64,000 nt of DNA from IMG/VR virus record IMGVR_UViG_3300020576_003687, one strand, 5' to 3'. The stretch is from an uncultured virus (IMG/VR IMGVR_UViG_3300020576_003687) (taxonomy: Duplodnaviria; Heunggongvirae; Uroviricota; Caudoviricetes). The notes under the pieces were generated by a model. It was not told the DNA's origin and did no database searches. It was given only the letters and a program-made list of their open reading frames with translations. Positions 2,050 to 35,797 of the stretch are shown here, one piece after another (the first letter of the stretch is position 1; each line of letters begins with the position of its first letter). A program made the position numbers and the translations under genes.

Positions 2050-3174
2050 ATGGCTCGTAAAAATCGAGAACAGTTTGGTAACTTGTTTGCCGAAACCAAA
2101 GAAGAGCTTTTTGTTGAAAAGGCTTTGAATACTCAAGCTGATTTCAATAGTTTGAGCAATCCATACGTCGGTAACAAACGCAAAATTCTGGCAGATATTG
2201 CTATTGAGCTAAATAGCGAAGTTTCTTTTGATTCTTTTAGCTCGGTACTTGATTTGTTTGCTGGTTCTGCTGTCGTTGGAGCGTTCTTTAAGAAGTTTGG
2301 TAAAGAAGTTTACTCGAATGAGTTGCTTCGTTCTTCTTATATGAATGGTGTTTCTTTGACGCAGGGCTGGAATAGCAGGATTCCCGACGAAGATTGGGAA
2401 TTTCTAGTATCTAATAAGAATTCGAAGTCTGATTCCTTTATGGAAAAGACTCACGCAGGTTCTCGTTTGACTAATGCGGAAGCCGTCTTTATTGACAATT
2501 ACTTCGCAAACGTAGAAGAGTGCTTTGCAAATGACCATGTTAGAGCCTGTATTGCTCATTCGACAATGATGCAGTTTATTATGTCTCATTGTTTTGTAGG
2601 CGGTAGGCTTAATAGCGGGCAGATTATTGCGTCTCTTGAACATCGTTTACAGCATCAGAGAAACGATAACAGTGAAATGAACTTTAAGACAATGAAGCCT
2701 TTCTATTTTCCTTGCGAAGGGCCTCCGTCGATGTTCTTCAACAATGATGTCTTTGATTTTTGTAACTCGGTTGGTAGCGGTCGTAGTTTTGATCTAATTT
2801 ACATTGATCCTCCATATGGTGGACAACAAAGCGATTACGCTTTTATGTACCAGTTTTTAGAGGAATACTTAGCTAGGAAATCTTTCGAAGATATCGAATA
2901 CCTAAAGGTTGCTTCGAAGTCTTTTTCAAAAGCTAAAACTTATGAGGATCATTTCCGAAGGTTACTAGATAGTTTGGATTCAAATGCAACTTTGGCAATT
3001 AGTTACAATGATAGTAGCTGGGCCAAAATTGAGACGATTAAAGAGTTGGTAAGCGAGTTTAGGAAGAATGTAATAGTTAAGACAATGCAGTACGATTACA
3101 AGTATCGTTCAGCCGAAAACTCGTCAGGTGTAGAATATTTGATTATTGGTCAAAGCGATGCCCAAAAGAGGTAA
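2050..3174 (+). CDS. D12-class (Dam/FokI-like) DNA adenine methyltransferase
   Basis: NPYVGNKRKI, LDLFAGSA (motif I), LIYIDPPY (motif IV). Confidence 0.85.
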   Translation: MARKNREQFGNLFAETKEELFVEKALNTQADFNSLSNPYVGNKRKILADIAIELNSEVSFDSFSSVLDLFAGSAVVGAFFKKFGKEVYSNELLRSSYMNGVSLTQGWNSRIPDEDWEFLVSNKNSKSDSFMEKTHAGSRLTNAEAVFIDNYFANVEECFANDHVRACIAHSTMMQFIMSHCFVGGRLNSGQIIASLEHRLQHQRNDNSEMNFKTMKPFYFPCEGPPSMFFNNDVFDFCNSVGSGRSFDLIYIDPPYGGQQSDYAFMYQFLEEYLARKSFEDIEYLKVASKSFSKAKTYEDHFRRLLDSLDSNATLAISYNDSSWAKIETIKELVSEFRKNVIVKTMQYDYKYRSAENSSGVEYLIIGQSDAQKR

Positions 3175-27142: not shown

Positions 27143-27547
27143 ATGAGTTCATTTACTATACGAATTTTTGGTTCGCCAGAATGCGAGCGATGCCAAGCTC
27201 TAGTTAAGGCTTTCCAGTACCATGATATTGCGTATGAGTATGTTGATGCTGATGCTGCTGAAAATGAAGCATTATGCGATACCTATAATGTAGACGAACT
27301 TCCGCATATACAGGCAAGATATTCTGAAAGCGGAAAGGTTTTTCATACTCATATAGGTTACACTAGTCCAATTGCTTTTATAGAGAAGGCTAGAGAGCAT
27401 ACAAAACAATTGGAAGAGTTCTTCAAAATGAACGCAAGCGTTGCGAATAAGGTTGTAGGTCATCAAGAAGTAATGAGGTCCGTTCATGAGCAGCAATCAA
27501 AGCGTCCCTGCGGAGGGTGTTCGAAGAAAAATCAGCCTAAACCCTGA
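27143..27547 (+). CDS. Glutaredoxin/thioredoxin-like protein
   Basis: IFGSPECERC, YEYVD, YNVDELPHI. Confidence 0.7.
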   Translation: MSSFTIRIFGSPECERCQALVKAFQYHDIAYEYVDADAAENEALCDTYNVDELPHIQARYSESGKVFHTHIGYTSPIAFIEKAREHTKQLEEFFKMNASVANKVVGHQEVMRSVHEQQSKRPCGGCSKKNQPKP

Positions 27548-30500
27548 ACAGCTAGAAGCCGTTGAGCATGTCATGGGACCGTGTTTTGTATGCGCCTGCC
27601 CTGGCTCTGGGAAGTGCATAACTGGAGATTCTATCGTTGTTCTTGACGACGGATTTTCTACTATTGATAATAGCAAGGTTGATTGGATTAGAGCGTTTGA
27701 TTCAGAATCTTTGAATCAAAGTAATTATCGTTCTATAAAAATCACAAATTTTGTTGACTCCGGCATTAAATCCACTCTTAAAGTTACAACTGAACAAGGT
27801 TATTCTATCCAGGGAACTCACCATCATCCTATTGCTATATTAAATAGGAAATGTGAACTAGAATGGAAAAAGCTTGAGGATATCCAAGTTGGGGATATTG
27901 CGGTTCTTCAAATGGAGAAGCAATCTGATAATCCTATAATACGCCATCCAAAATTTTATGATGTTTGGTATGTTCTTGGGTTGATGTTTGGTGATGGTTA
28001 TTTGGTAAGAAAAAATGAACTTAGCATAACAACTAATGATGATGAAATTCAAGCCTCGTTTACTCAGTTCTTTAGAGAACGATTTGATTATACTGTAAAT
28101 GTTTACTATGATAAGAGGCGAATCGGTCTTAGATCTTTAGTTATCTGTTCTAAGGATATAAAAAAGCAATTACAAGATATATTTGGTGATTTTTTTAGTT
28201 TGGCTTGCGATAAGAGGATGACATCGCAAATGCTATCTGCTGGAAGAGGAGAGATAGGCAGCTTTATACAAGGGCTGTTTGATACTGATGGGTATGTTAG
28301 CGGAAATAATGTTGAAATATGTCTTTGTTCTCAAAAGCTTATAGAGCAGCTTCAAACTATTCTTTTGAGATTTGGAGTGTTTTCTTCGCTAAAAACAAAA
28401 GAAGTTGATGGATCTTTATATTATCGTTTACATATTTCAGGCGAAGATATGCGTAGATTTGAGAAGAATATAGGTTTTAGACTTCCTAGAAAACAGAAAC
28501 AACTCAGAGAAATTTGTTGCAAGATTTCTAATCCCAACAGAATTATACCTTTTGCAGATTATTTGGTTTCTCAAATTTATAGTAAAGTAAAATTACAAAA
28601 ACCGGAAAACTACGATCCTAAAACTTCTAATTTTTATGATATCAACGGAGATTTTGTTAGGCTCATAAGATATTGTTCAAAATCCAAAGCTGTATTACGA
28701 GGTTTAACTGAAACGGCAGCTTATAAACTAATATCTGCTTGTGAAGTTGCCAATATTAATTGTATTGCTTTGGATCAATTGAGGTTTTTGGTAGACAATT
28801 TTGGATTTAGTCCGGTTGAATCTGTGGTTGATGGTGGGCCTCAGCATGTTTATGACTATTTTATTGAGGGTTCACATAATTTTGTTGCCAATGGGTTTGT
28901 AAACCATAATACTCGTGTTATTGTTGAAAGAGTTATTCGCCTTATTGAGAAGGGTTATAGCCCCCGTTCTATTCTTTGCATAACATTCACCAATAAAGCT
29001 GCAAACGAAATGAAGGAAAGAGTTTGTAAGCAGCTTGGCGAAACGCAAGGTCAAGAAGTCTATATAAGCACTTTCCACGCTCTTTGCGCAACCATTATCA
29101 GGAAGTATGGCTCCTATATCGGTTATGGACTCAATACCACTATTCTTGACGACGAAGATCAAGAAGGCCTAATGGCTCAGTGCGCTAGACAAGCGGGCCA
29201 TGAATGGAATGCGCAGCAAATAAAGAGCCTTATTTGGAAGGCTAATGAACTTCGAGAAAACCTTATTTCTGAGGACGATTTTCCTTCTCATTTCAAGCAC
29301 GAAGCCGAAGGCGAGGTTTGCAGAGAGTATGTTCTTCGTATGAGAAAGAACAACCAGATAGATTTCAGTGGTTTGTTGTCTGAAACTATTAGACTCCTTG
29401 AAAAGGACGGTTCTGTTCTTTGTAAGTTACAAACTCGTTTTGATTTTATTCAGGTTGACGAAGCTCAAGATACAAACTTTGCTCAGTTTAGAATTGTTCA
29501 GTTAATTGGCGCTCATAATAATGTTCTTATAGTTGGAGACCCGGACCAAGGTATCTACTCTTGGCGTGGCGCTCGTTACAAGAACATAGAAGATTTCATC
29601 AACATCAACAAGGCGAAGGTTGTTAACCTACCTCATAACTATCGATCAACGCCAGAGATTGTCAAAGTTGCTTCAACGCTTATAAAGCACAATAAGAACC
29701 GTCAGCAAACTCTTGAATTCAAGACGGGTAATGAAAGCGGACAGCCTGTTGAATGCATTTGTCTACCAACGCCAGAGCAGGAAGGGGCATGGATTGCTCA
29801 TCGTATTAAGCATATGATTGACAACGAAGGTTATAAGCCGCATGATTTTGCGGTTCTGTATAGAATTAATGCGATGTCGAGAGCTATTGAGCAGGGTCTT
29901 ATGGCTGTTGGCGTAACTTATCAAGTTATTGGAGGCTTTAGCTTCTTTGACCGTTCTGAGATCCGAGACTGTCTTGCAATGTTGCGGTTCATTGTTAATC
30001 CTCTTGATGGAACTGCTTTATCTCGTTTCATCAATAAGCCTTCTCGCCGAATCGGAGAAGTATCTTTGGGTAAGATTGAGAATTTTGCTAACGATCAAGG
30101 TATCAATCTTATGGAGGCCATGAAGCGGGTTAGAGAGTTTGCCTCTGGCAATGATAAAGCAAGGGTTATACAGGGATGCGAAGAAATCCATGCAGCGTTT
30201 TCGTTTGACAGAACTGGTATGTCAATAGGCGATGTTTTGGATAATATCGTTGTTCGATTGGGTTACTATCGTTATCTTGAGTCTAAGTACGAAACAAAAG
30301 AACTTGACGACAGGAAGGATAACGTTCAAGAACTTATCAATGCTTGCGCTTTGTATACAGAAAAGAGAAATAACGATATTGCTGGATACTTGAATAACAT
30401 AGCTTTGCAAACCTCGTCTGATAAGGATACGGAAGAGAATACTGTTTCTCTAATGTCTCTTCACGCCTCAAAGGGCTTGGAGTTCCCTGTCGTATTTATG

Positions 30501-30746
30501 CCTGGTCTTGAAGAAGGTCAGCTTCCTCATAAGCGAGCCTTGATGGAAAGAGACGGCTTAGACGAAGAGCGAAGACTTTGTTATGTTGGAATGACAAGAG
30601 CGCAACAAAGATTGATTGTTTCTTTTGCGGATACGAGAATGCAGCGATTCAAGAATGGCGGTATATCTTTCGAGCCGACTAAAAAGAGTCGTTTTCTTCA
30701 AGAATCAGGGCTTGCTAATACAATAAGAACGATCCGCGCAAGATAA
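27486..30746 (+). CDS. uvrD: UvrD/PcrA helicase with intein
   Basis: LNPEQLEAV, ACPGSGK|intein|TRV, ITFTNKAANEM, STFHA, VDEAQD, VGDPDQ.IY.WRGA, NYRS, HASKGLEF, EERRLCYVGMTRA. Confidence 0.95.
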   Translation: MSSNQSVPAEGVRRKISLNPEQLEAVEHVMGPCFVCACPGSGKCITGDSIVVLDDGFSTIDNSKVDWIRAFDSESLNQSNYRSIKITNFVDSGIKSTLKVTTEQGYSIQGTHHHPIAILNRKCELEWKKLEDIQVGDIAVLQMEKQSDNPIIRHPKFYDVWYVLGLMFGDGYLVRKNELSITTNDDEIQASFTQFFRERFDYTVNVYYDKRRIGLRSLVICSKDIKKQLQDIFGDFFSLACDKRMTSQMLSAGRGEIGSFIQGLFDTDGYVSGNNVEICLCSQKLIEQLQTILLRFGVFSSLKTKEVDGSLYYRLHISGEDMRRFEKNIGFRLPRKQKQLREICCKISNPNRIIPFADYLVSQIYSKVKLQKPENYDPKTSNFYDINGDFVRLIRYCSKSKAVLRGLTETAAYKLISACEVANINCIALDQLRFLVDNFGFSPVESVVDGGPQHVYDYFIEGSHNFVANGFVNHNTRVIVERVIRLIEKGYSPRSILCITFTNKAANEMKERVCKQLGETQGQEVYISTFHALCATIIRKYGSYIGYGLNTTILDDEDQEGLMAQCARQAGHEWNAQQIKSLIWKANELRENLISEDDFPSHFKHEAEGEVCREYVLRMRKNNQIDFSGLLSETIRLLEKDGSVLCKLQTRFDFIQVDEAQDTNFAQFRIVQLIGAHNNVLIVGDPDQGIYSWRGARYKNIEDFININKAKVVNLPHNYRSTPEIVKVASTLIKHNKNRQQTLEFKTGNESGQPVECICLPTPEQEGAWIAHRIKHMIDNEGYKPHDFAVLYRINAMSRAIEQGLMAVGVTYQVIGGFSFFDRSEIRDCLAMLRFIVNPLDGTALSRFINKPSRRIGEVSLGKIENFANDQGINLMEAMKRVREFASGNDKARVIQGCEEIHAAFSFDRTGMSIGDVLDNIVVRLGYYRYLESKYETKELDDRKDNVQELINACALYTEKRNNDIAGYLNNIALQTSSDKDTEENTVSLMSLHASKGLEFPVVFMPGLEEGQLPHKRALMERDGLDEERRLCYVGMTRAQQRLIVSFADTRMQRFKNGGISFEPTKKSRFLQESGLANTIRTIRAR
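27615..28910 (+). mobile_element. Intein with LAGLIDADG endonuclease in UvrD Walker A
   Basis: Starts CITGDS after GSGK; GTHHH block B; VLGLMFGDG and FIQGLFDTDG; ends HNFVANGFVNHN before Thr; 432 aa. Confidence 0.93.
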
Positions 30747-30766
30747 ATATTGACAAGACAAAGAAA

Positions 30767-31504
30767 TTAAATAGCCCCATCTTTTCTGGTATGATATCCT
30801 GTACGGAAGTAAACTTCCGTACCATGAATGCCTATTTTATTTAGTTCTCTTACTTGTTTGTATAATCGCTCCCTCCATTCTACAACTTCTTGTGGAGAAG
30901 TTCTAACCCTCCCGTCTTTCCCTTTTCTTTGCTCTTCTAAGACTATTTCAACAAGTTTTTTAGGTATACGAGGTTTACTGGCTAAGTGATAAGCTCCTTT
31001 CACAGAAAGTAAAAGGCCGTTTTTTACTGCTTGAGATACTGAGCTTAGATTTTTGTACCCCAAGATATGACAAACTTCTTGGCTACTAAGAAGTTCGTCA
31101 TTTTTCCAGTTTGGATATTTTTGACTGAACCAGTAACTGTGCATTAGATACTTGCGATTTCTGGTCTCTTCTAATTCTAGAATAATTTTGGCTTGTTGTT
31201 TCTTTACAACAAGAAAAGGAAGCAAGGTTTTACAGAAAGCAATAGCTTGCTGATTGTTACATTCAAAAACAAAGAGTTCTTTGCTGTTTTCTGATTGTCC
31301 TTTTTCTTTTCTCAGGCTACCTCTAAAAATGGAGTGTAATAGATTTGGAATTTGAGGAGTTACTTGTTTTAGTCCAACTTTTGCTTGATAAGTAGGATAA
31401 TAACAGTCTTTGATGACTCTTGTTTTGTAATCTGATTTTTTTATTGAAAACCAACCATCAGAGTCCATTGCTCCTGCCAGATAGGCTAAGGTTTCGTTCT
31501 TCAT
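30767..31504 (-). CDS. Free-standing single-motif LAGLIDADG homing endonuclease with HTH-like insertion
   Basis: LAYLAGAMDSDGWFSI, LLPFLVVKKQQA, RERLY..VRELN; LLSSQEVCHILG resembles an excisionase-type HTH; SD GGAGG on the minus strand. Confidence 0.85.
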   Translation of the reverse strand: MKNETLAYLAGAMDSDGWFSIKKSDYKTRVIKDCYYPTYQAKVGLKQVTPQIPNLLHSIFRGSLRKEKGQSENSKELFVFECNNQQAIAFCKTLLPFLVVKKQQAKIILELEETRNRKYLMHSYWFSQKYPNWKNDELLSSQEVCHILGYKNLSSVSQAVKNGLLLSVKGAYHLASKPRIPKKLVEIVLEEQRKGKDGRVRTSPQEVVEWRERLYKQVRELNKIGIHGTEVYFRTGYHTRKDGAI

Positions 31505-31562
31505 ACATCCTCCGTATAACAGTATATTTTACTATTTCTTTCATATGGTCGATAATCCCTTT

Positions 31563-32563
31563 ATGGCAAACTATGAATTATTATGCGGTGATACGGAAGG
31601 AGTGTTGGGCGGAATGAGTCCCAATAGCGTTCATGCTATTGTGACTTCTCCGCCCTATTAGCTTATTATCAGTTGCGAGATTATGACTTTCAAGATCAGA
31701 TTGGTCTTGAAAAGACTCCTGACGAATATATAGCTAAGCTTGTTAGCGTGTTTTCTGCCGCTAAACGTGTTCTTAGAAATGACGGAACTGTATGGCTTAA
31801 TATAGGCGATACTTACGCAAGAACTTCCGGCGAAGGATATAAGAAGGGAGATCTTTTAGGGATTCCCTGGATGCTTGCTTTTGCTTTGAGAAAAGACGGT
31901 TGGTTTTTGAGAAGCGCTATAATTTGGGCCAAACCCAATCCTTTACCTGGAGGAGTCACAGATAGACCTGTTTCTTCGCATGAGTATTTGTTTCTTCTTG
32001 GTAAGTCTGAAAACTATTATTATGATCAAGAGTCTATAAAAGAAAACGCTGTTGAGCGTAATTCTGATGGTTCTTTTAAGAGACGAATTAAGAGGGACGT
32101 TTGGACTGTCCCTGTTGCGTCTTTTAAGGGCGCTCATTTTGCTGTTTTTCCTCAAGGCTTGGTTGAGCCTTGTATTTTGGCTTCAACTAGCGGTCATGGT
32201 TGTTGTAAAGTATGCGGTTCTCCTTATGAGAGACAAGTTCAGAAAAATCGCTATTCAACTCGCCCTGGCATACATAATAAGGTTGATAAGAAGGGTTTTG
32301 CAAATAGGGATTCGGGAAGGCATCTAACTGATACAAAGACTGTCGGATGGTTGAAAACTTGTAGTTGCGAAACAAATGAAGTTGACAAAAGCGTGGTTCT
32401 TGATATTTTCTGTGGTTCAGGTACGACAGGTGTTATAGCCTTGCAAAATGGGCGGAAGTTCATTGGAATAGATGGTAAACAAGAGTATTTGAATATGGCG
32501 AAGAACCGCCTTATAAGAGAAGAAGAAGTAATAGGAGTTTTGAATGCATCTAAGGGACTTTAA
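31563..32563 (+). CDS. Beta-class N4C DNA methyltransferase split by stop + frame change right after SPPY (bypass candidate or pseudogene)
   Basis: 31563-31658 encodes MANYELLCGD...VHAIVTSPPY then TAG; another frame continues YYQLRDY..QIGLE.TP..YI, HFAVFP..LVEPCI, VLDIFCGSGTTG. Confidence 0.8.
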
Positions 32564-33299
32564 GGACAAACACAAAGGTAAGCTTGGTTTTATCGTTGGC
32601 GCAGGCCCTTCTTTGCGGCATGTTGAAACAGACAGCCTAAAAGATTATGTTGTTTTTACGTCTAACTCTGGTTTGTTGAAGTTTCCTAACTGCGATTATT
32701 TTGTAACCGATGATAATGGCGTTTGTAGTTGGAACTATTGGCAAGTAACGGCTAAGCAAAGCAAGTGCATGAAGCTTCTTTATAGGGAAAAGCTTCAAGG
32801 TCATGAGTCTATTTTTAGGCCAGAAGAAGTTCTCTTTTATGATCATGTAGGATGGGCCTCTTCAGGTCCAAACGGGTTGATTTACCATAAAGAGAATGTT
32901 GTTATGACGGACGATCCAGAAAAGCCAATTATGGGAGCAAGAACGTCTGCTGCTTCAGCGATGCATATTGCTTATATTATGGGATGCGATCCTATTGTTC
33001 TTCTTGGTATGGATGGTTGTTATGAAGGAAGAAATAGGTATTACTGGCAGTTTCCTAATCAACCCAAGGCTATAGAGTATAACAATCGTATATTTTCAAC
33101 ACCGAATCGAGGGTTGCTCAGAGATAAACCTGTCGATAATCACTGTGTTGCATATGACTTGTATTGGAATCATTTTGCTGAAATGAACCCAAGTCTGATG
33201 CAAGGAAGAATTCTTAATGCCTCGGGTGGAATTGTTGAGGTTTTTCCAAGAATTAGTTTGTCCGAAGTTCTTAAAACATATGGAGATAGAAAGAAATGA
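32544..33299 (+). CDS. Maf/DUF115-like putative nonulosonic acid transferase
   Basis: FKDKHKGK.GFIVGAGPSL, AMHIAYIMGCDPIVLLGMD, ILNAS; next to neuA/neuB. Confidence 0.65.
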   Translation: MHLRDFKDKHKGKLGFIVGAGPSLRHVETDSLKDYVVFTSNSGLLKFPNCDYFVTDDNGVCSWNYWQVTAKQSKCMKLLYREKLQGHESIFRPEEVLFYDHVGWASSGPNGLIYHKENVVMTDDPEKPIMGARTSAASAMHIAYIMGCDPIVLLGMDGCYEGRNRYYWQFPNQPKAIEYNNRIFSTPNRGLLRDKPVDNHCVAYDLYWNHFAEMNPSLMQGRILNASGGIVEVFPRISLSEVLKTYGDRKK

Positions 33300-33754
33300 A
33301 GAAGACGCAAAACAAAAAGTCAGTAAGGAAAACTTCTAGTCGAAAAAAGAATTCTAAGAAGTTATCAAAAAAGAAATTGAGAGAGCAAATTGTCAAACTT
33401 CAGTTTGATAAGTTTGCTAAAATGTTCGAAGACGCAGAAGAGTTTTCGAGAAGGTTACATGATAAGAAGAAAGAGTTTGAGGCCTTGAATAAGGAGGCTT
33501 GGGAAGAGCAAAGAAGGCGTCTAACCGAAGCTTGTCCTAAAAAGGAAAAGGAAAAAGAAAAGCCTAAGAGTTCAGTTTGCGAGAATAGAGCCGAAGCTTG
33601 TATTCATAAGTTGTTGGAAATTATTACATCACAAGAGCCTCCCTCGATTAGACTGAATAAGGCGTATGAGTATTTGGAAGATTGCTTTAGCCCTTTACCT
33701 GAATTTGTTCCCAATATGTTGATTGAAGTATGCTCCCCGACAAATCAAAAGTAA
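33296..33754 (+). CDS. Hypothetical Lys-rich protein
   Basis: ATGA-coupled 152-aa ORF. Confidence 0.5.
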   Translation: MKKTQNKKSVRKTSSRKKNSKKLSKKKLREQIVKLQFDKFAKMFEDAEEFSRRLHDKKKEFEALNKEAWEEQRRRLTEACPKKEKEKEKPKSSVCENRAEACIHKLLEIITSQEPPSIRLNKAYEYLEDCFSPLPEFVPNMLIEVCSPTNQK

Positions 33755-34458
33755 TAGCGTTCATTCCTGGCAAGACGGCTTCTATTGGTCTTCCCGGAAA
33801 GATGTTCAAAAAGATTGGTCAACACTCTCTTTTAGAGTGGACATTACTTGCTGCAACACAAAGTAAGTACATAGATGAAATAGTTGTTTCAGCAATTGAC
33901 CCTTTGGTTTTTGAAGTATTTAACAAGTTTGCTTCTGAACATACAGAGAAGGTATTTAGGGCGATTGAAAGACCGGCAGAACTTTGCTCTGCGACAAGTA
34001 AGACTGAGCAAGCTATTAGTCATTTGTTTAACAACTATCCGTATTATTCTGATTTTAGCTATTTAGTTATGTTGCAGGCAACGTCTCCTGCAAGAAGAAA
34101 TGGATTGATAGATAAATGCTTTGATAAGCTTATTGATACGAATGCTGATAGCTTATTAACAGTTACCGCTTCAACTCCTTTCTTTTGGAAGAAAACAGGA
34201 GTTGGTCATGCTTATACTCCAACTTATGACGTACTCAATAGACCAATGAGGCAAGAGCTTTTTGATAGAGATTACTATTATCACGATAATGGGAATGTTT
34301 ACATAACAAGGGTTGAAAAGTATCTAGAATCTCGTTGTAGGGTTTCTGGAACTGTTGAGATTTATCCGACCGACAAGTTTGAAAGTCTTCAAATTGACAA
34401 TGCAGAAGACCTCATAATGATGCAGTCATTGCATGATTATTATGGAAGTTGTTTATGA
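33730..34458 (+). CDS. neuA: Acylneuraminate (CMP-nonulosonate) cytidylyltransferase
   Basis: AFIPGKTASIGLPGKM, ERPAEL, MLQATSP.R, RPMRQE, YHDNGNVYI, SLQIDNAED. Confidence 0.85.
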   Translation: MLPDKSKVIAFIPGKTASIGLPGKMFKKIGQHSLLEWTLLAATQSKYIDEIVVSAIDPLVFEVFNKFASEHTEKVFRAIERPAELCSATSKTEQAISHLFNNYPYYSDFSYLVMLQATSPARRNGLIDKCFDKLIDTNADSLLTVTASTPFFWKKTGVGHAYTPTYDVLNRPMRQELFDRDYYYHDNGNVYITRVEKYLESRCRVSGTVEIYPTDKFESLQIDNAEDLIMMQSLHDYYGSCL

Positions 34459-35312
34459 ATGTTACAGCAAAAGTTGTTGCAGAAGTTGGATGTGTTCATC
34501 TTGGCTCTATGCAAAGAGCTAAGGATTTGGCGAGTCTTGCCAAACTTTGCGGCGCTGATTATGTAAAGTTTCAAAAGAGGAATCCCGAGGAAAGCGTACC
34601 AGAATCTCTTAAGCACAAACCTCATCCTAATCAGATATTCGCTTATGGTCCTACATATCTTGAGCATCGTAAAGCTCTTGAGTTTTCAATAGATCAGCAT
34701 TTAGAGCTTATGTCTTATTGTCAAGGAATTGGCATTAAGTATTCTTCCTCTGTTTGGGATATGACTTCTGCCAAGGAAATTGTTTCCTTGAATCCCGAGT
34801 TTATCAAGATACCAAGTGCATGTAATCAAAATTTCAAGATGTTGGAATACCTTCTGTGTAACTATAAAGGCGATATTCACATCTCAACGGGTATGACTTT
34901 TGACCATGAGAAGATTCGTATTTTTGATTACATAAAGCCTTATCCAAGCCGTTTTGTTGTCTATCATTGTACAAGTCTTTATCCTTGTCCATTTGAAAAA
35001 CTATATTTAATGAATATTAGAGGTTTGTCGAAGCTTGCTAATGAGTACAATTTTGAGGTTGGATTTTCTAATCATGGTTATGGTATAGCGGCTGATATAG
35101 CTGCGTATGTTCTTGGTGCTACGTTTATAGAGAGACATTTTGTTGACGATAGAACCCTTCGTCATACCGACGCTGCTGCGAGCCTTGAGCCTGAGGGTTT
35201 ACGGAAGTTGTGTCGAGATTTGAAAAATGTTGCAAAGGCTATGGAATTTTCAGGTCCAGAGCCAACCGCAGAAGAAATGGTTGAAAGATCTAAATTGAGG
35301 GTTGAAGAATGA
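34455..35312 (+). CDS. neuB: N-acetylneuraminate/KDN-9-P synthase family (no C-terminal SAF/AFP domain)
   Basis: VAEVGCVHLG, GADYVKFQKR, IKIPSA, ISTGM, YHCTSLYP, VGFSNH, IERHF, DAAASLEP. Confidence 0.9.
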   Translation: MNVTAKVVAEVGCVHLGSMQRAKDLASLAKLCGADYVKFQKRNPEESVPESLKHKPHPNQIFAYGPTYLEHRKALEFSIDQHLELMSYCQGIGIKYSSSVWDMTSAKEIVSLNPEFIKIPSACNQNFKMLEYLLCNYKGDIHISTGMTFDHEKIRIFDYIKPYPSRFVVYHCTSLYPCPFEKLYLMNIRGLSKLANEYNFEVGFSNHGYGIAADIAAYVLGATFIERHFVDDRTLRHTDAAASLEPEGLRKLCRDLKNVAKAMEFSGPEPTAEEMVERSKLRVEE

Positions 35313-35797
35313 GTATTGAAGCTGTAAAACTGATAGCCATAGACGTAGATGGAACTCTTACTGATGGAAACTATTACATCAATGAGGCGGGTGATCTATA
35401 TAAGAACTTTTTTACAAGAGATATGTATGCAATAGATCAAGCTGCCAAGAATGGTTTTCAGATAGTTTTTGTAACAGGTTCAAGAGATAGAGTAATCTAT
35501 GCCAAAGTAGGCAAAAAGTATCCAATTTTGTCTGGTTGCGAGAATAAGTTTGCAAAACTGAGCGAGTATATAGTTGAAAATGGGTTGAGTTGGGAAGAGG
35601 TTGCTTACATTGGTGACGCGGAGAATGACCATAAGTGTATTGTTGAAGCAGCTTTTTCTGGATGTCCTTCTGACGCCGTACCTGAAATTGTTGAGCATTC
35701 CGTTTATTCTTCTCACTGTCCTGGCGGTAAGGGTGCGGTTTACGATGTTATCAGATATTTTTACAGACTTCGCAAGATTCCTTGGACTTTAGAGTAG
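35309..35797 (+). CDS. KdsC/YrbI-family HAD phosphatase
   Basis: IDVDGTLTDG, F.TRD, VTG, VAYIGD.END, CPSDA, GGKGAV. Confidence 0.88.
   Translation: MSIEAVKLIAIDVDGTLTDGNYYINEAGDLYKNFFTRDMYAIDQAAKNGFQIVFVTGSRDRVIYAKVGKKYPILSGCENKFAKLSEYIVENGLSWEEVAYIGDAENDHKCIVEAAFSGCPSDAVPEIVEHSVYSSHCPGGKGAVYDVIRYFYRLRKIPWTLE

Follow-up and report, generated by a model that had tools for sequence, protein, structure and literature searches.

How could a phage make a complete DNA methyltransferase from a gene that is interrupted by a stop codon and a change of reading frame directly after the catalytic motif? The question is raised by a 64,000-nucleotide (nt) stretch (hereafter the window) of IMG/VR record IMGVR_UViG_3300020576_003687, an uncultured virus of the Caudoviricetes, in which a methylase gene carries 8 additional bases and lies next to a divergent gene for a LAGLIDADG-type homing endonuclease (Table 1). 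We propose that a short Tyr-to-Tyr hop of the ribosome keeps the methylase alive while the insert shields the target of the endonuclease, and we give this reading a probability of about 55%.

Positions 31650-31684 of the window read CCG CCC TAT TAG CT TAT TAT CAG TTG CGA GAT TAT. One frame, beginning at ATG 31545 or 31563, leads into VTSPPY and then TAG (31659-61); another, open from 31628 to the stop at 32563, reads AYYQLRDYDF. The 296-amino-acid (aa) open reading frame (ORF) in this second frame matches PF01555 (N6_N4_Mtase; E = 5e-37, 128 bits against a Pfam cut-off of 26.7). SPPY (motif IV) is located in the N-terminal fragment, and the S-adenosylmethionine motif FxGxG is found as FCGSGTTG in the C-terminal part. 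Relatives in the PDB, reached via the intact homolog P0001, are the beta-class N4/N6 DNA methyltransferases CcrM, M.PvuII, and M.RsrI. The interrupted gene is one for a beta-class N4/N6 DNA methyltransferase, split directly after its catalytic SPPY motif; it does not form a single continuous reading frame, with 8 extra nt between SPPY and YQLRDY.

The intact homolog P0001 (331 aa, 95% identical to the window) reads ..ITSPPYYQLRDYDF.., and the metagenome locus L004, also intact, is 99% identical to P0001; the closest uninterrupted homologs read ..ITSPPYYQLRDYDFQDQ.. at this point. These homologs have one Tyr codon fewer here, and therefore the window carries exactly 8 extra bases. The insert can be drawn in six equivalent ways, because TATTA stands on either side of GCT. 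For a random 8-mer, a stop at the beginning (3/64) together with a Tyr codon at the end (1/32) has a probability of ~0.0015, and a chance origin is unlikely. The stop-led 8-nt gap at the SPPY motif that the initial annotation had described is thus borne out by the sequence and by P0001 and L004, as is its description of both methylase halves as otherwise intact, and the predicted skip product, VTSPPY-YQLRDY, agrees with the family motif in the homolog comparison. The alternative offered there, a duplication scar, fits less well, as the 8 nt are not copied from adjacent sequence; simple tandem duplication was rejected as the source of the insert, neither adjacent 8-mer matching beyond TATTA. 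The 32-aa N-terminal fragment, which contains no Lys or Arg, shares 32–50% identity with the N-termini of 10 intact homologs (P0001 included), with L, T, S, P, P, and Y invariant; the rest of the methylase is 95% identical to P0001.

The insert is genuine and not an assembly error. Logan contigs, which may hide rare forms, cover the site in four runs (X1, X3, X11, and X9) from four studies, and the insert is present in all of them: in X1 with 1 difference (this may be the source sample of the window), in X3 (a contig of 54,523 nt) with 69 differences over 2201 nt, in X11 with 67 differences over 31356-32700, and in X9, an RNA library, with 20 differences over 30636-31702, where the contig may reflect DNA carry-over and is not a sign of transcription. 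The sole indels listed in these runs are at 30754 and 32534. The same 8 nt are found in the IMG/VR contig L001 (333,623 nt), with flanks ~5% diverged, and, without any indel, in G001/L002; G001 is 99.97% identical over 3.5 kilobases (kb) and may represent the same population as the window. Sequencing support for the 8 nt, which the initial annotation had wanted from reads, thus comes from contigs of other studies. The retention of the insert in the X9 RNA-library contig also bears on readings in which the 8 nt are removed or read otherwise, whether by excision from the RNA, by an insert-free DNA subpopulation, or by a phage tRNA with an extended codon. We find these scarcely credible: no indel variant is listed at the site (with the caveat on rare forms given above), there is no known mechanism for an 8-nt intron, and reading UAGCU as one codon would add two residues; on the other side stands the large tRNA complement of a related phage, with one odd ARAGORN call for a "cta" anticodon.

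Concerning tRNAs, the related 333-kb phage (G002, which is the L001 record; C1:1-30000) has at least 41 tRNA matches, including tRNA-Tyr(GTA), and ARAGORN calls a "tRNA-Pyl (cta)" of 80 nt in L322 (1792-1871), with an odd 14-nt anticodon region containing CCTAGG. No tRNA genes were found in the window, no suppressor tRNA was found in the window or in the seven loci scanned, and no signs of recoding were seen in other gapped loci. Use of TAG as a sense codon was rejected: the first frame continues past TAG as junk, and genes of the window require no in-frame TAG. Stop usage in the window is TGA 35, TAA 32, and TAG 4 of 71.

The insert belongs to a mobile cassette. The endonuclease has the motif LAGAMDSDG near its N-terminus and matches Pfam LAGLIDADG_1 below the cut-off (E = 0.004; 18.5 bits against 23.1), PHROG 5046 at 2.3e-16 (labeled "HNH endonuclease" by PHROGs), and, weakly, I-CvuI in the PDB (E = 0.17); its homologs in L289 and L221 match LAGLIDADG_1 at 8.5e-6 and 3.7e-4, respectively. 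From the start of the endonuclease ORF to the TAG is 155 nt. L004 represents the empty site: between the points that correspond to 30747 and 31629, where the window loses homology, it has 104 nt, the endonuclease gene is absent, and the UvrD gene ends 42 nt upstream of the intact 331-aa methylase, which is preceded by a GGAG resembling a Shine-Dalgarno (SD) sequence. In the X9 assembly, from wastewater, the allele with endonuclease and gap occurs together with an endonuclease-less form, the contig of which joins 30747 straight to 31664, the first base of the second TAT. Endonuclease gene and gap are both present in the window, L001, G001, and the X3 and X11 contigs, and L004 has neither; the tie between the gap and the divergent LAGLIDADG gene suggested by the initial annotation thus extends to a relative that lacks both. 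The loss of homology, the diverged N-terminus, and the X9 junction together delimit the foreign segment, which therefore comprises the endonuclease gene and a diverged copy of the methylase 5' end and stops at the insert. The 8 bases are the distal (right-hand) end of a homing-endonuclease cassette that brings its own copy of the first 32 methylase codons.

Between the window and L001, the cassette shows 14 differences in 1000 nt (30707-31706; 1.4%), compared with 44 in each of the neighboring 400-nt bins (11%). Being less diverged than its surroundings, the cassette is therefore younger and has moved between genomic backgrounds. A single 90% methylase cluster holds five distinct 296-aa gap forms (on contigs of 11–333 kb) and seven intact members of 321–331 aa (P0135, P0137, P0140, P0141, P0142, P0145, and P0146; two further listed members are partial), with 3' parts that are mosaic among members. 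This recent spread among backgrounds is also what would be expected if the cassette had brought an inactivating insert into a dispensable methylase, with an ORF that is intact just from recency. A homing element can spread while damaging a non-essential gene, and stimulators of the type that act in phage T4 gene 60 were not found here. We nevertheless regard a dead gene as unlikely, though it is an explanation that has to be taken seriously. The C-terminal part shows 48 synonymous and 8 non-synonymous differences from L001 and no stops, and the ratio of non-synonymous to synonymous polymorphism (pN/pS) is 0.047, similar to 0.052 in the neighboring gene; because the cassette is younger than its flanks, pN/pS is uninformative on the survival of the gene. 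The N-terminal fragment, by comparison, retains the invariant family residues, which argues against inactivation.

Older gapped genes are more informative. Four further proteins, P0009, P0010, P0012, and P0013 (~63% identical to the window), begin at the same residue (M/L-RDY) or with a short out-of-frame overhang. P0009, P0010, P0012, and P0013/P0133 group together (support 93/90), with the intact P0016/P0018 as their sister group; the members of this clade, mutually 73–76% identical, have kept an ORF of 290 aa. Tip branches in this clade measure 0.23–0.33 (0.29 being the stem common to P0013 and P0133), compared with 0.26–0.69 in intact relatives. From the shared truncation point and from divergence without faster change, it follows that a gene broken here was kept through substantial divergence (24–27% at the protein level), contrary to what a dead gene would predict. 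The initial annotation had named decay of the downstream part as a sign against its proposal; no decay is seen, either as stops relative to L001 or as longer branches in the P0009 clade. For the overhangs of P0131 and P0132, the sole possible decoding is as a shifted reading of ..S-V-H-x-x-I-T-S-P-P-Y, then TAG, a single base (Y in one protein, R in the other), and Tyr-Phe-Gln-(Met/Leu)-Arg-Asp-Tyr. The anatomy suggested for the P0009 clade by these protein overhangs would be Tyr-TAG-N-Tyr, a 7-nt step needing +1, and a Tyr-to-Tyr skip gives the family consensus both there and in the window (8 nt, +2). A profile search of short proteins gave 10 matches among 15 candidates, of which P0122, P0123, and P0124 end exactly at SPPY; P0122 has 32 aa and is 84% identical to the N-terminal fragment of the window. 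No close relative of P0010 was found in IMG/VR (best match 41%), and the scan for SPPY followed by a stop, described next, also missed the P0009 clade.

IMG/VR was scanned for codons of [I/V/M]-T-S-P-P-Y followed by each of the stop codons, which gave 16 loci for TAG, 36 for TAA, and 92 for TGA (80 of these examined), most of them chance occurrences without methylase context. A filter for [WFYD]-x-[LIMQVA]-R-x-[YF] shortly afterward, in any frame, left 25 loci in 20 distinct methylase lineages, each with an insert of 3–8 nt that begins with a stop and immediately follows the Tyr of SPPY. The inserts are TGAC in nine lineages (L221, L222, L223, L231, L240, L247, L250, L254, and L279), TAAC in three (L179, L195, and L199), and one lineage each for TAG (L095), TGAT (L233), TGAAT (L289), TAGTTC (L093), TAGTTAC (L091), TGATTAG (L237), TAGCTTAT (the lineage of the window), and TGAAGTAG (L255); lengths are therefore 3, 4 (13 lineages), 5, 6, 7, 7, 8, and 8 nt. 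Three of the 4-nt lineages are represented by paired loci (L222/L259, L254/L267, and L179/L207); in all 13 the insert is at 619-625 of the oriented locus, and the motif goes on in the +1 frame. The lineages are very diverse, apart from L237 (7 nt) and L255 (8 nt), which are related, and the frame after the insert is open to the end of the DNA examined in nearly all 20. The gap is thus not unique to the window, a point on which the initial annotation had made its proposal depend: related and unrelated methylase lineages have stop-led gaps at the same codon boundary.

Removal of the insert restores the consensus spacing SPPY-xxx-R.Y in 20/20 lineages. In the family of L091 (leaving out 3 of 74 loci), TSPP-YD.. 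is unbroken in 64 of 71 rows, with 2 interrupted and 5 uninformative, and among more distant relatives SPPY-xxx-RDY is continuous in 70 of 86 loci; 3 are broken, all of the window's lineage, and 13 gave no match to the regular expression. Spacing from SPPY to R.Y is continuous across the informative rows other than the interrupted loci, and the length of this loop is therefore invariant. In L091 itself the sequence is TAT TAG T TAC GAT, with one extra Tyr codon relative to the SPP-YDGIRNY of its relatives. Such a recurrent, non-random design (a stop, a Tyr-like triplet, and the intact motif immediately afterward in 20 lineages) is difficult to reconcile with dead genes, as random knock-outs would not gather at one codon boundary with this anatomy.

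Several loci with related arrangements were also observed. L106 (~2980-3010), found with a stop-free query, reads CCG TAG ATA TCG TAT and has a 9-nt in-frame insert, TAG ATA TCG, one codon earlier, between SSPP and YDGIRNY; its take-off codon CCG matches the last triplet, TCG, at two of three positions. Pro-tRNA in the peptidyl (P) site beside a stop is a poor context for termination. L093/L097 (2405-5020) and L095 (oriented; 988-2613) encode methylases with an in-frame TAG TTC or TAG after SPPY. The L093 gene exceeds 833 aa, with its methylase domain starting at residue 332 and LAGLIDADG_3 at 750-797, and probably contains one or two inteins; an ORF consisting of a DnaB N-terminal domain alone lies directly upstream of this methylase.

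The proposed hop would proceed as follows. The insert carried by the cassette sits inside the most conserved codons of the methylase (SPPY-Y-Q-L-R-D-Y), where it most likely would stop the endonuclease of the cassette from cutting the genome that carries it. During translation, peptidyl-tRNA(Tyr) on UAU 31656-58, with the slowly decoded UAG in the aminoacyl (A) site, would release from its codon; the mRNA would slide by 8 nt and the tRNA would re-pair with the matching UAU at 31664-66. Reading would restart at UAU 31667 and give a 330-aa enzyme with a normal SPPY-YQLRDY junction, as the anatomy of the site and the comparative data suggest. Ribosomes are known to stall at poly-proline, and it may be speculated that the di-proline before the Tyr slows the ribosome and aids take-off.

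The series of inserts gives hints of the rules that such a hop would follow. The five inserts of at least 6 nt end in the triplets TTC, TAC, TAG, TAT, and TAG, each matching a Tyr codon at two or three of three positions; a Tyr-like last triplet has a chance of 0.25 in each case, or 0.25^6 for six when the decoded P0009 clade is included, with the proviso that the five are not fully independent, L237 and L255 being related. All four-base inserts (13/13) end in a pyrimidine, leading to GAY or AAY (xAY) as the landing triplet. A length of 4 nt is found in 0/4 TAG-led inserts and in 13/16 TGA- or TAA-led ones; this avoidance would be expected if AGN were a poor landing site for tRNA(Tyr), and not if a weak stop context alone were at work. 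These features fit a re-pairing of peptidyl-tRNA after a short slide.

Reinitiation is less easily accommodated. In the window, termination at TAG and restart at TTG 31673 would produce a 32-aa SPPY peptide and a 296-aa protein that assemble into a split enzyme. The TTG lies just three codons past the landing codon, Met occupies the restart position in 3/4 P0009-clade lineages, and reassembling phage enzymes split by endonucleases are known, such as T4 Topo2L and Aeh1 NrdA (10.1101/2022.08.31.505936). We still consider a split enzyme distinctly improbable. Among the 20 lineages, 4 have their first ATG, GTG, or TTG of the resumed frame at codon 3, 15 have it no earlier than codon 8, and 1 has none in the first 60 codons; there is no conserved nearby start codon, and reinitiation is therefore disfavored as a general mechanism. 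The codons between stop and restart (Tyr, Phe/Tyr/Trp, x) are in frame and follow the consensus in the 20 lineages and in P0131/P0132, as would not be the case for bases that are never translated. An enzyme restarted at TTG would, moreover, be without the conserved aromatic that follows SPPY. There is no SD-like core upstream of TTG 31673, though only 42 of 74 long frames of this phage have one; for the same reason, the absence of a visible SD sequence before the N-terminal fragment is uninformative.

Conventional frameshifting would also join the two frames. A −1 (or +2) shift at CCC TAT TAG would give SPPY-L-A-YYQLRDY and thereby lengthen the catalytic loop by three residues; shifting is favored when the A site holds a stop, and with the second frame open from 31628, a shift anywhere in 31628-31661 would suffice. 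Nonetheless, a slippery heptamer is missing, neither −1 (CUA) nor +2 (UUA) offers a codon with which tRNA(Tyr) could re-pair, and the stretch from SPPY to R.Y is free of extra residues in every uninterrupted family member, which makes this explanation very improbable. The related lineages would, moreover, require +1 or 0 instead: with +1, +2, or 0 needed in different lineages, no single direction of shift explains all, and a length-blind hop does. In the +1 frameshifting of prfB and antizyme, recoding is driven by an A-site stop in a poor context (a stop followed by C). This resembles the 4-nt T[GA]AC inserts of other lineages; in contrast, the window has no +1 site of this type, as its frames differ by +2/−1, tRNA(Tyr) cannot re-pair at +1, and a +1 shift would make a loop of invariant length one residue longer.

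Several points weigh against the Tyr-to-Tyr hop. RNA structure at 31620-31710 is not significant (z = −1.68; 16 of 200 shuffles fold as well), and the hairpin at 31690-31710 is in sequence common to the intact allele. The stimulators of T4 gene 60 are absent: a take-off hairpin would not fit, and neither an SD-like element nor a nascent-peptide signal of the KKYK type is present. Synthetic short hops have low efficiencies, in the per-cent range. In most of the 20 lineages the landing match is just two of three, and the 4-nt class could use a +1 shift like that of prfB and antizyme, adding one residue. The candidate CUA-anticodon tRNA of a related phage, if a real suppressor, may compete at the UAG. 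Phage methylases are often dispensable, and a selfish cassette could afford to kill this one; the low pN/pS and intact ORF in the window mostly reflect the time that preceded the insertion. For the P0009 clade, the 7-nt anatomy was decoded from protein overhangs and not from DNA, and the scans required a stop after the Tyr and were hence blind to stopless inserts. No endonuclease gene was found beside the gap in L091 and L106, which speaks against a strict link between gap and enzyme; the enzyme may also have been lost once the insert was in place, a course described for MobA elements.

The endonuclease link can also be followed in other gapped lineages. A tblastn search with the endonuclease of the window identified homologs in L289, L199, and L221 (30–35% identity; E = 7e-17 to 9e-14), each directly upstream of the gapped methylase and divergent from it, as in the window. 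Pfam matches upstream of gapped methylases were to LAGLIDADG_1 in L221 and L289, and to HNH in L179, L237, and L250 (35 ORF pieces from 18 loci; the genes upstream of L093 were examined separately). Overall, 7/20 gapped lineages have a LAGLIDADG or HNH gene no more than 600 nt upstream, as against 1/126 intact loci (E <= 0.001); three of the seven genes are homologs of the window's enzyme. The enrichment has a Fisher p of 2e-6, or 1e-4 on Pfam matches alone (5/19), relative to intact controls (219 ORF pieces) that are relatives of P0010 and L091 and not matched neighbors of each gapped lineage. Weak control matches were seen in L012 (0.009) and L069 (0.008), the first batch of controls having been examined at E <= 0.01 and the second at E <= 0.001. 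L122 (2454-2822) is the sole intact control with a clear upstream HNH gene (4e-6); its enzyme may have a different target, or the site may be shielded by substitutions instead of an insert.

Taken with the endonuclease link, the insert series suggests a wider proposal, the odds of which we put slightly below even: stop-led gaps of 3–9 nt may be a general solution of phage homing cassettes, in which the target of the endonuclease is broken within an invariant motif and the protein is left unchanged. The ribosome would hop to a cognate or two-of-three triplet without a hairpin or a long nascent signal, and the di-proline of SPPY together with the stop would provide the pause here.

Translational bypassing in actual use is known for phage T4 gene 60 and its homologs and in a single yeast mitochondrial genome. 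The gene 60 bypass of T4 belongs to the same mobile element as the MobA endonuclease; its insert blocks nicking by MobA, and the conserved protein is unchanged (10.1101/2022.08.31.505936). The locus in the window resembles this system in several respects: endonuclease gene and putative untranslated insert travel as one cassette, which also contains a diverged version of the target-gene sequence at its flank; the insert falls in a highly conserved coding stretch; the codons TAT 31656-58 and 31664-66 match, with UAG directly after take-off (10.1101/2022.08.31.505936); and spread among related phages is recent. Unlike T4 gene 60, in which the gap is 47–50 nt, the window has a gap of 5 nt (an 8-nt step), and it lacks the take-off hairpin, the internal SD, and the KKYK nascent signal (PMC5009743), which in T4 are represented by KKYK at 25–30 residues before the P site and by an SD-like element 6 nt 5' of the landing codon (PMC5009743). 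Furthermore, the endonuclease is of LAGLIDADG type and not an HNH enzyme like MobA, the target is a DNA methyltransferase and not a topoisomerase, the endonuclease gene is upstream and divergent, the target gene is not split around it, and there is no sequence homology. The predicted bypass in the window would thus be analogous, and not homologous, to that of T4 gene 60/MobA.

Synthetic stop-hops in Escherichia coli function with matched codons flanking a stop (PMC5009743); as proposed here, the P-site tRNA leaves the codon before the stop and re-pairs a few bases on. Those hops are in frame, with 9 nt for one residue, whereas the candidate in the window is natural, frame-changing, and recurrent. 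PMC5009743 states that in-frame stop hops are not known from nature and that shorter natural equivalents of gene 60 have been "long presumed". The terminase of Streptomyces phage Hau3 is a candidate short natural coding gap (PMC5009743), and is similar to the window in being a short gap in a phage gene; it differs in being tied to the rare Streptomyces UUA codon and thought to be regulatory, with no endonuclease link described in that part of the source (PMC5009743). PF01555 methylases of actinophages contain an intein or, in ShiLan, a domain with a hidden HNH endonuclease (PMC9957025; PMC11855218). The same enzyme family has thus been hit repeatedly by homing elements at conserved residues; in contrast to the window, the inserted sequences there are long, stay in frame, and are translated. 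The terms "frameshift", "SPPY", and "bypass" do not occur in the available portions of PMC9957025 or PMC11855218. [quoted passage not shown] We found no account of a coding gap at SPPY in a methylase in open-access papers and preprints.

If the Tyr-to-Tyr hop is real, ordinary ribosomes naturally skip a few bases after a stop, driven by an arms race between homing endonuclease and target, and gene callers systematically misannotate such genes as truncated or as pseudogenes. The lineages constitute an allelic series, with inserts of 3–8 nt (9 nt in L106), all three stops, and landing matches from perfect to two-of-three, so that the landing rules are directly testable on natural inserts. Should the hop fail, the locus would remain an example of a LAGLIDADG cassette that spreads at the cost of a methylase, disabled at its catalytic motif.

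Table 1. Features of the interrupted methylase locus in the window.
Feature	Positions	Strand	Basis
Free-standing LAGLIDADG-type homing endonuclease gene, 245 aa, divergent from the methylase	30767..31504	-	ORF, motif, weak profile matches
Segment without detectable homology to the endonuclease-less allele (endonuclease gene, intergenic region, diverged methylase 5' end)	30748..31628	.	blastn against L004
Divergent intergenic region with weak promoter-like matches	31505..31562	.	TTTACT-17-GATAAT ending at 31556, 9/12
Methylase N-terminal fragment, 32 codons, ending in motif IV SPPY	31563..31658	+	ORF translation, alignment
Proposed take-off codon TAT (Tyr of SPPY)	31656..31658	+	Sequence
Proposed untranslated gap TAGCT, with TAG 31659-61 in the A site at take-off	31659..31663	+	Kept in L001, L002, and contigs of four runs
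Proposed landing codon TAT, matching the take-off codon; with 31659-63, the 8 extra bases	31664..31666	+	Sequence, intact homologs
Methylase C-terminal part, from resume codon TAT 31667 (QLRDY..) to the stop	31667..32563	+	PF01555 5e-37; 95% identical to P0001

The promoter-like sites in the intergenic region are not above those in shuffled sequence (4 found, 2.7 expected). Nearly all genes of the window are on one strand and its relatives are contigs of 165–333 kb; the window belongs to a jumbo phage. The UvrD-like helicase gene (27486-30746) contains an intein with LAGLIDADG_3 (Intein_splicing 2.7e-13; LAGLIDADG_3 6.6e-19), and the intein insert (~27614-28906; 1293 nt) is absent in L001 and L004. 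It is a second, independent mobile element beside the methylase cassette, polymorphic among close relatives. Directly downstream of the methylase, the region 32544-35797 encodes an MptE-like protein (PF01973; 9.9e-9), a CTP_transf_3 cytidylyltransferase (2e-8), NeuB (1.4e-60), and an HAD hydrolase, a set of sugar genes that resembles a pathway for a nonulosonic (sialic-like) acid in this jumbo phage.

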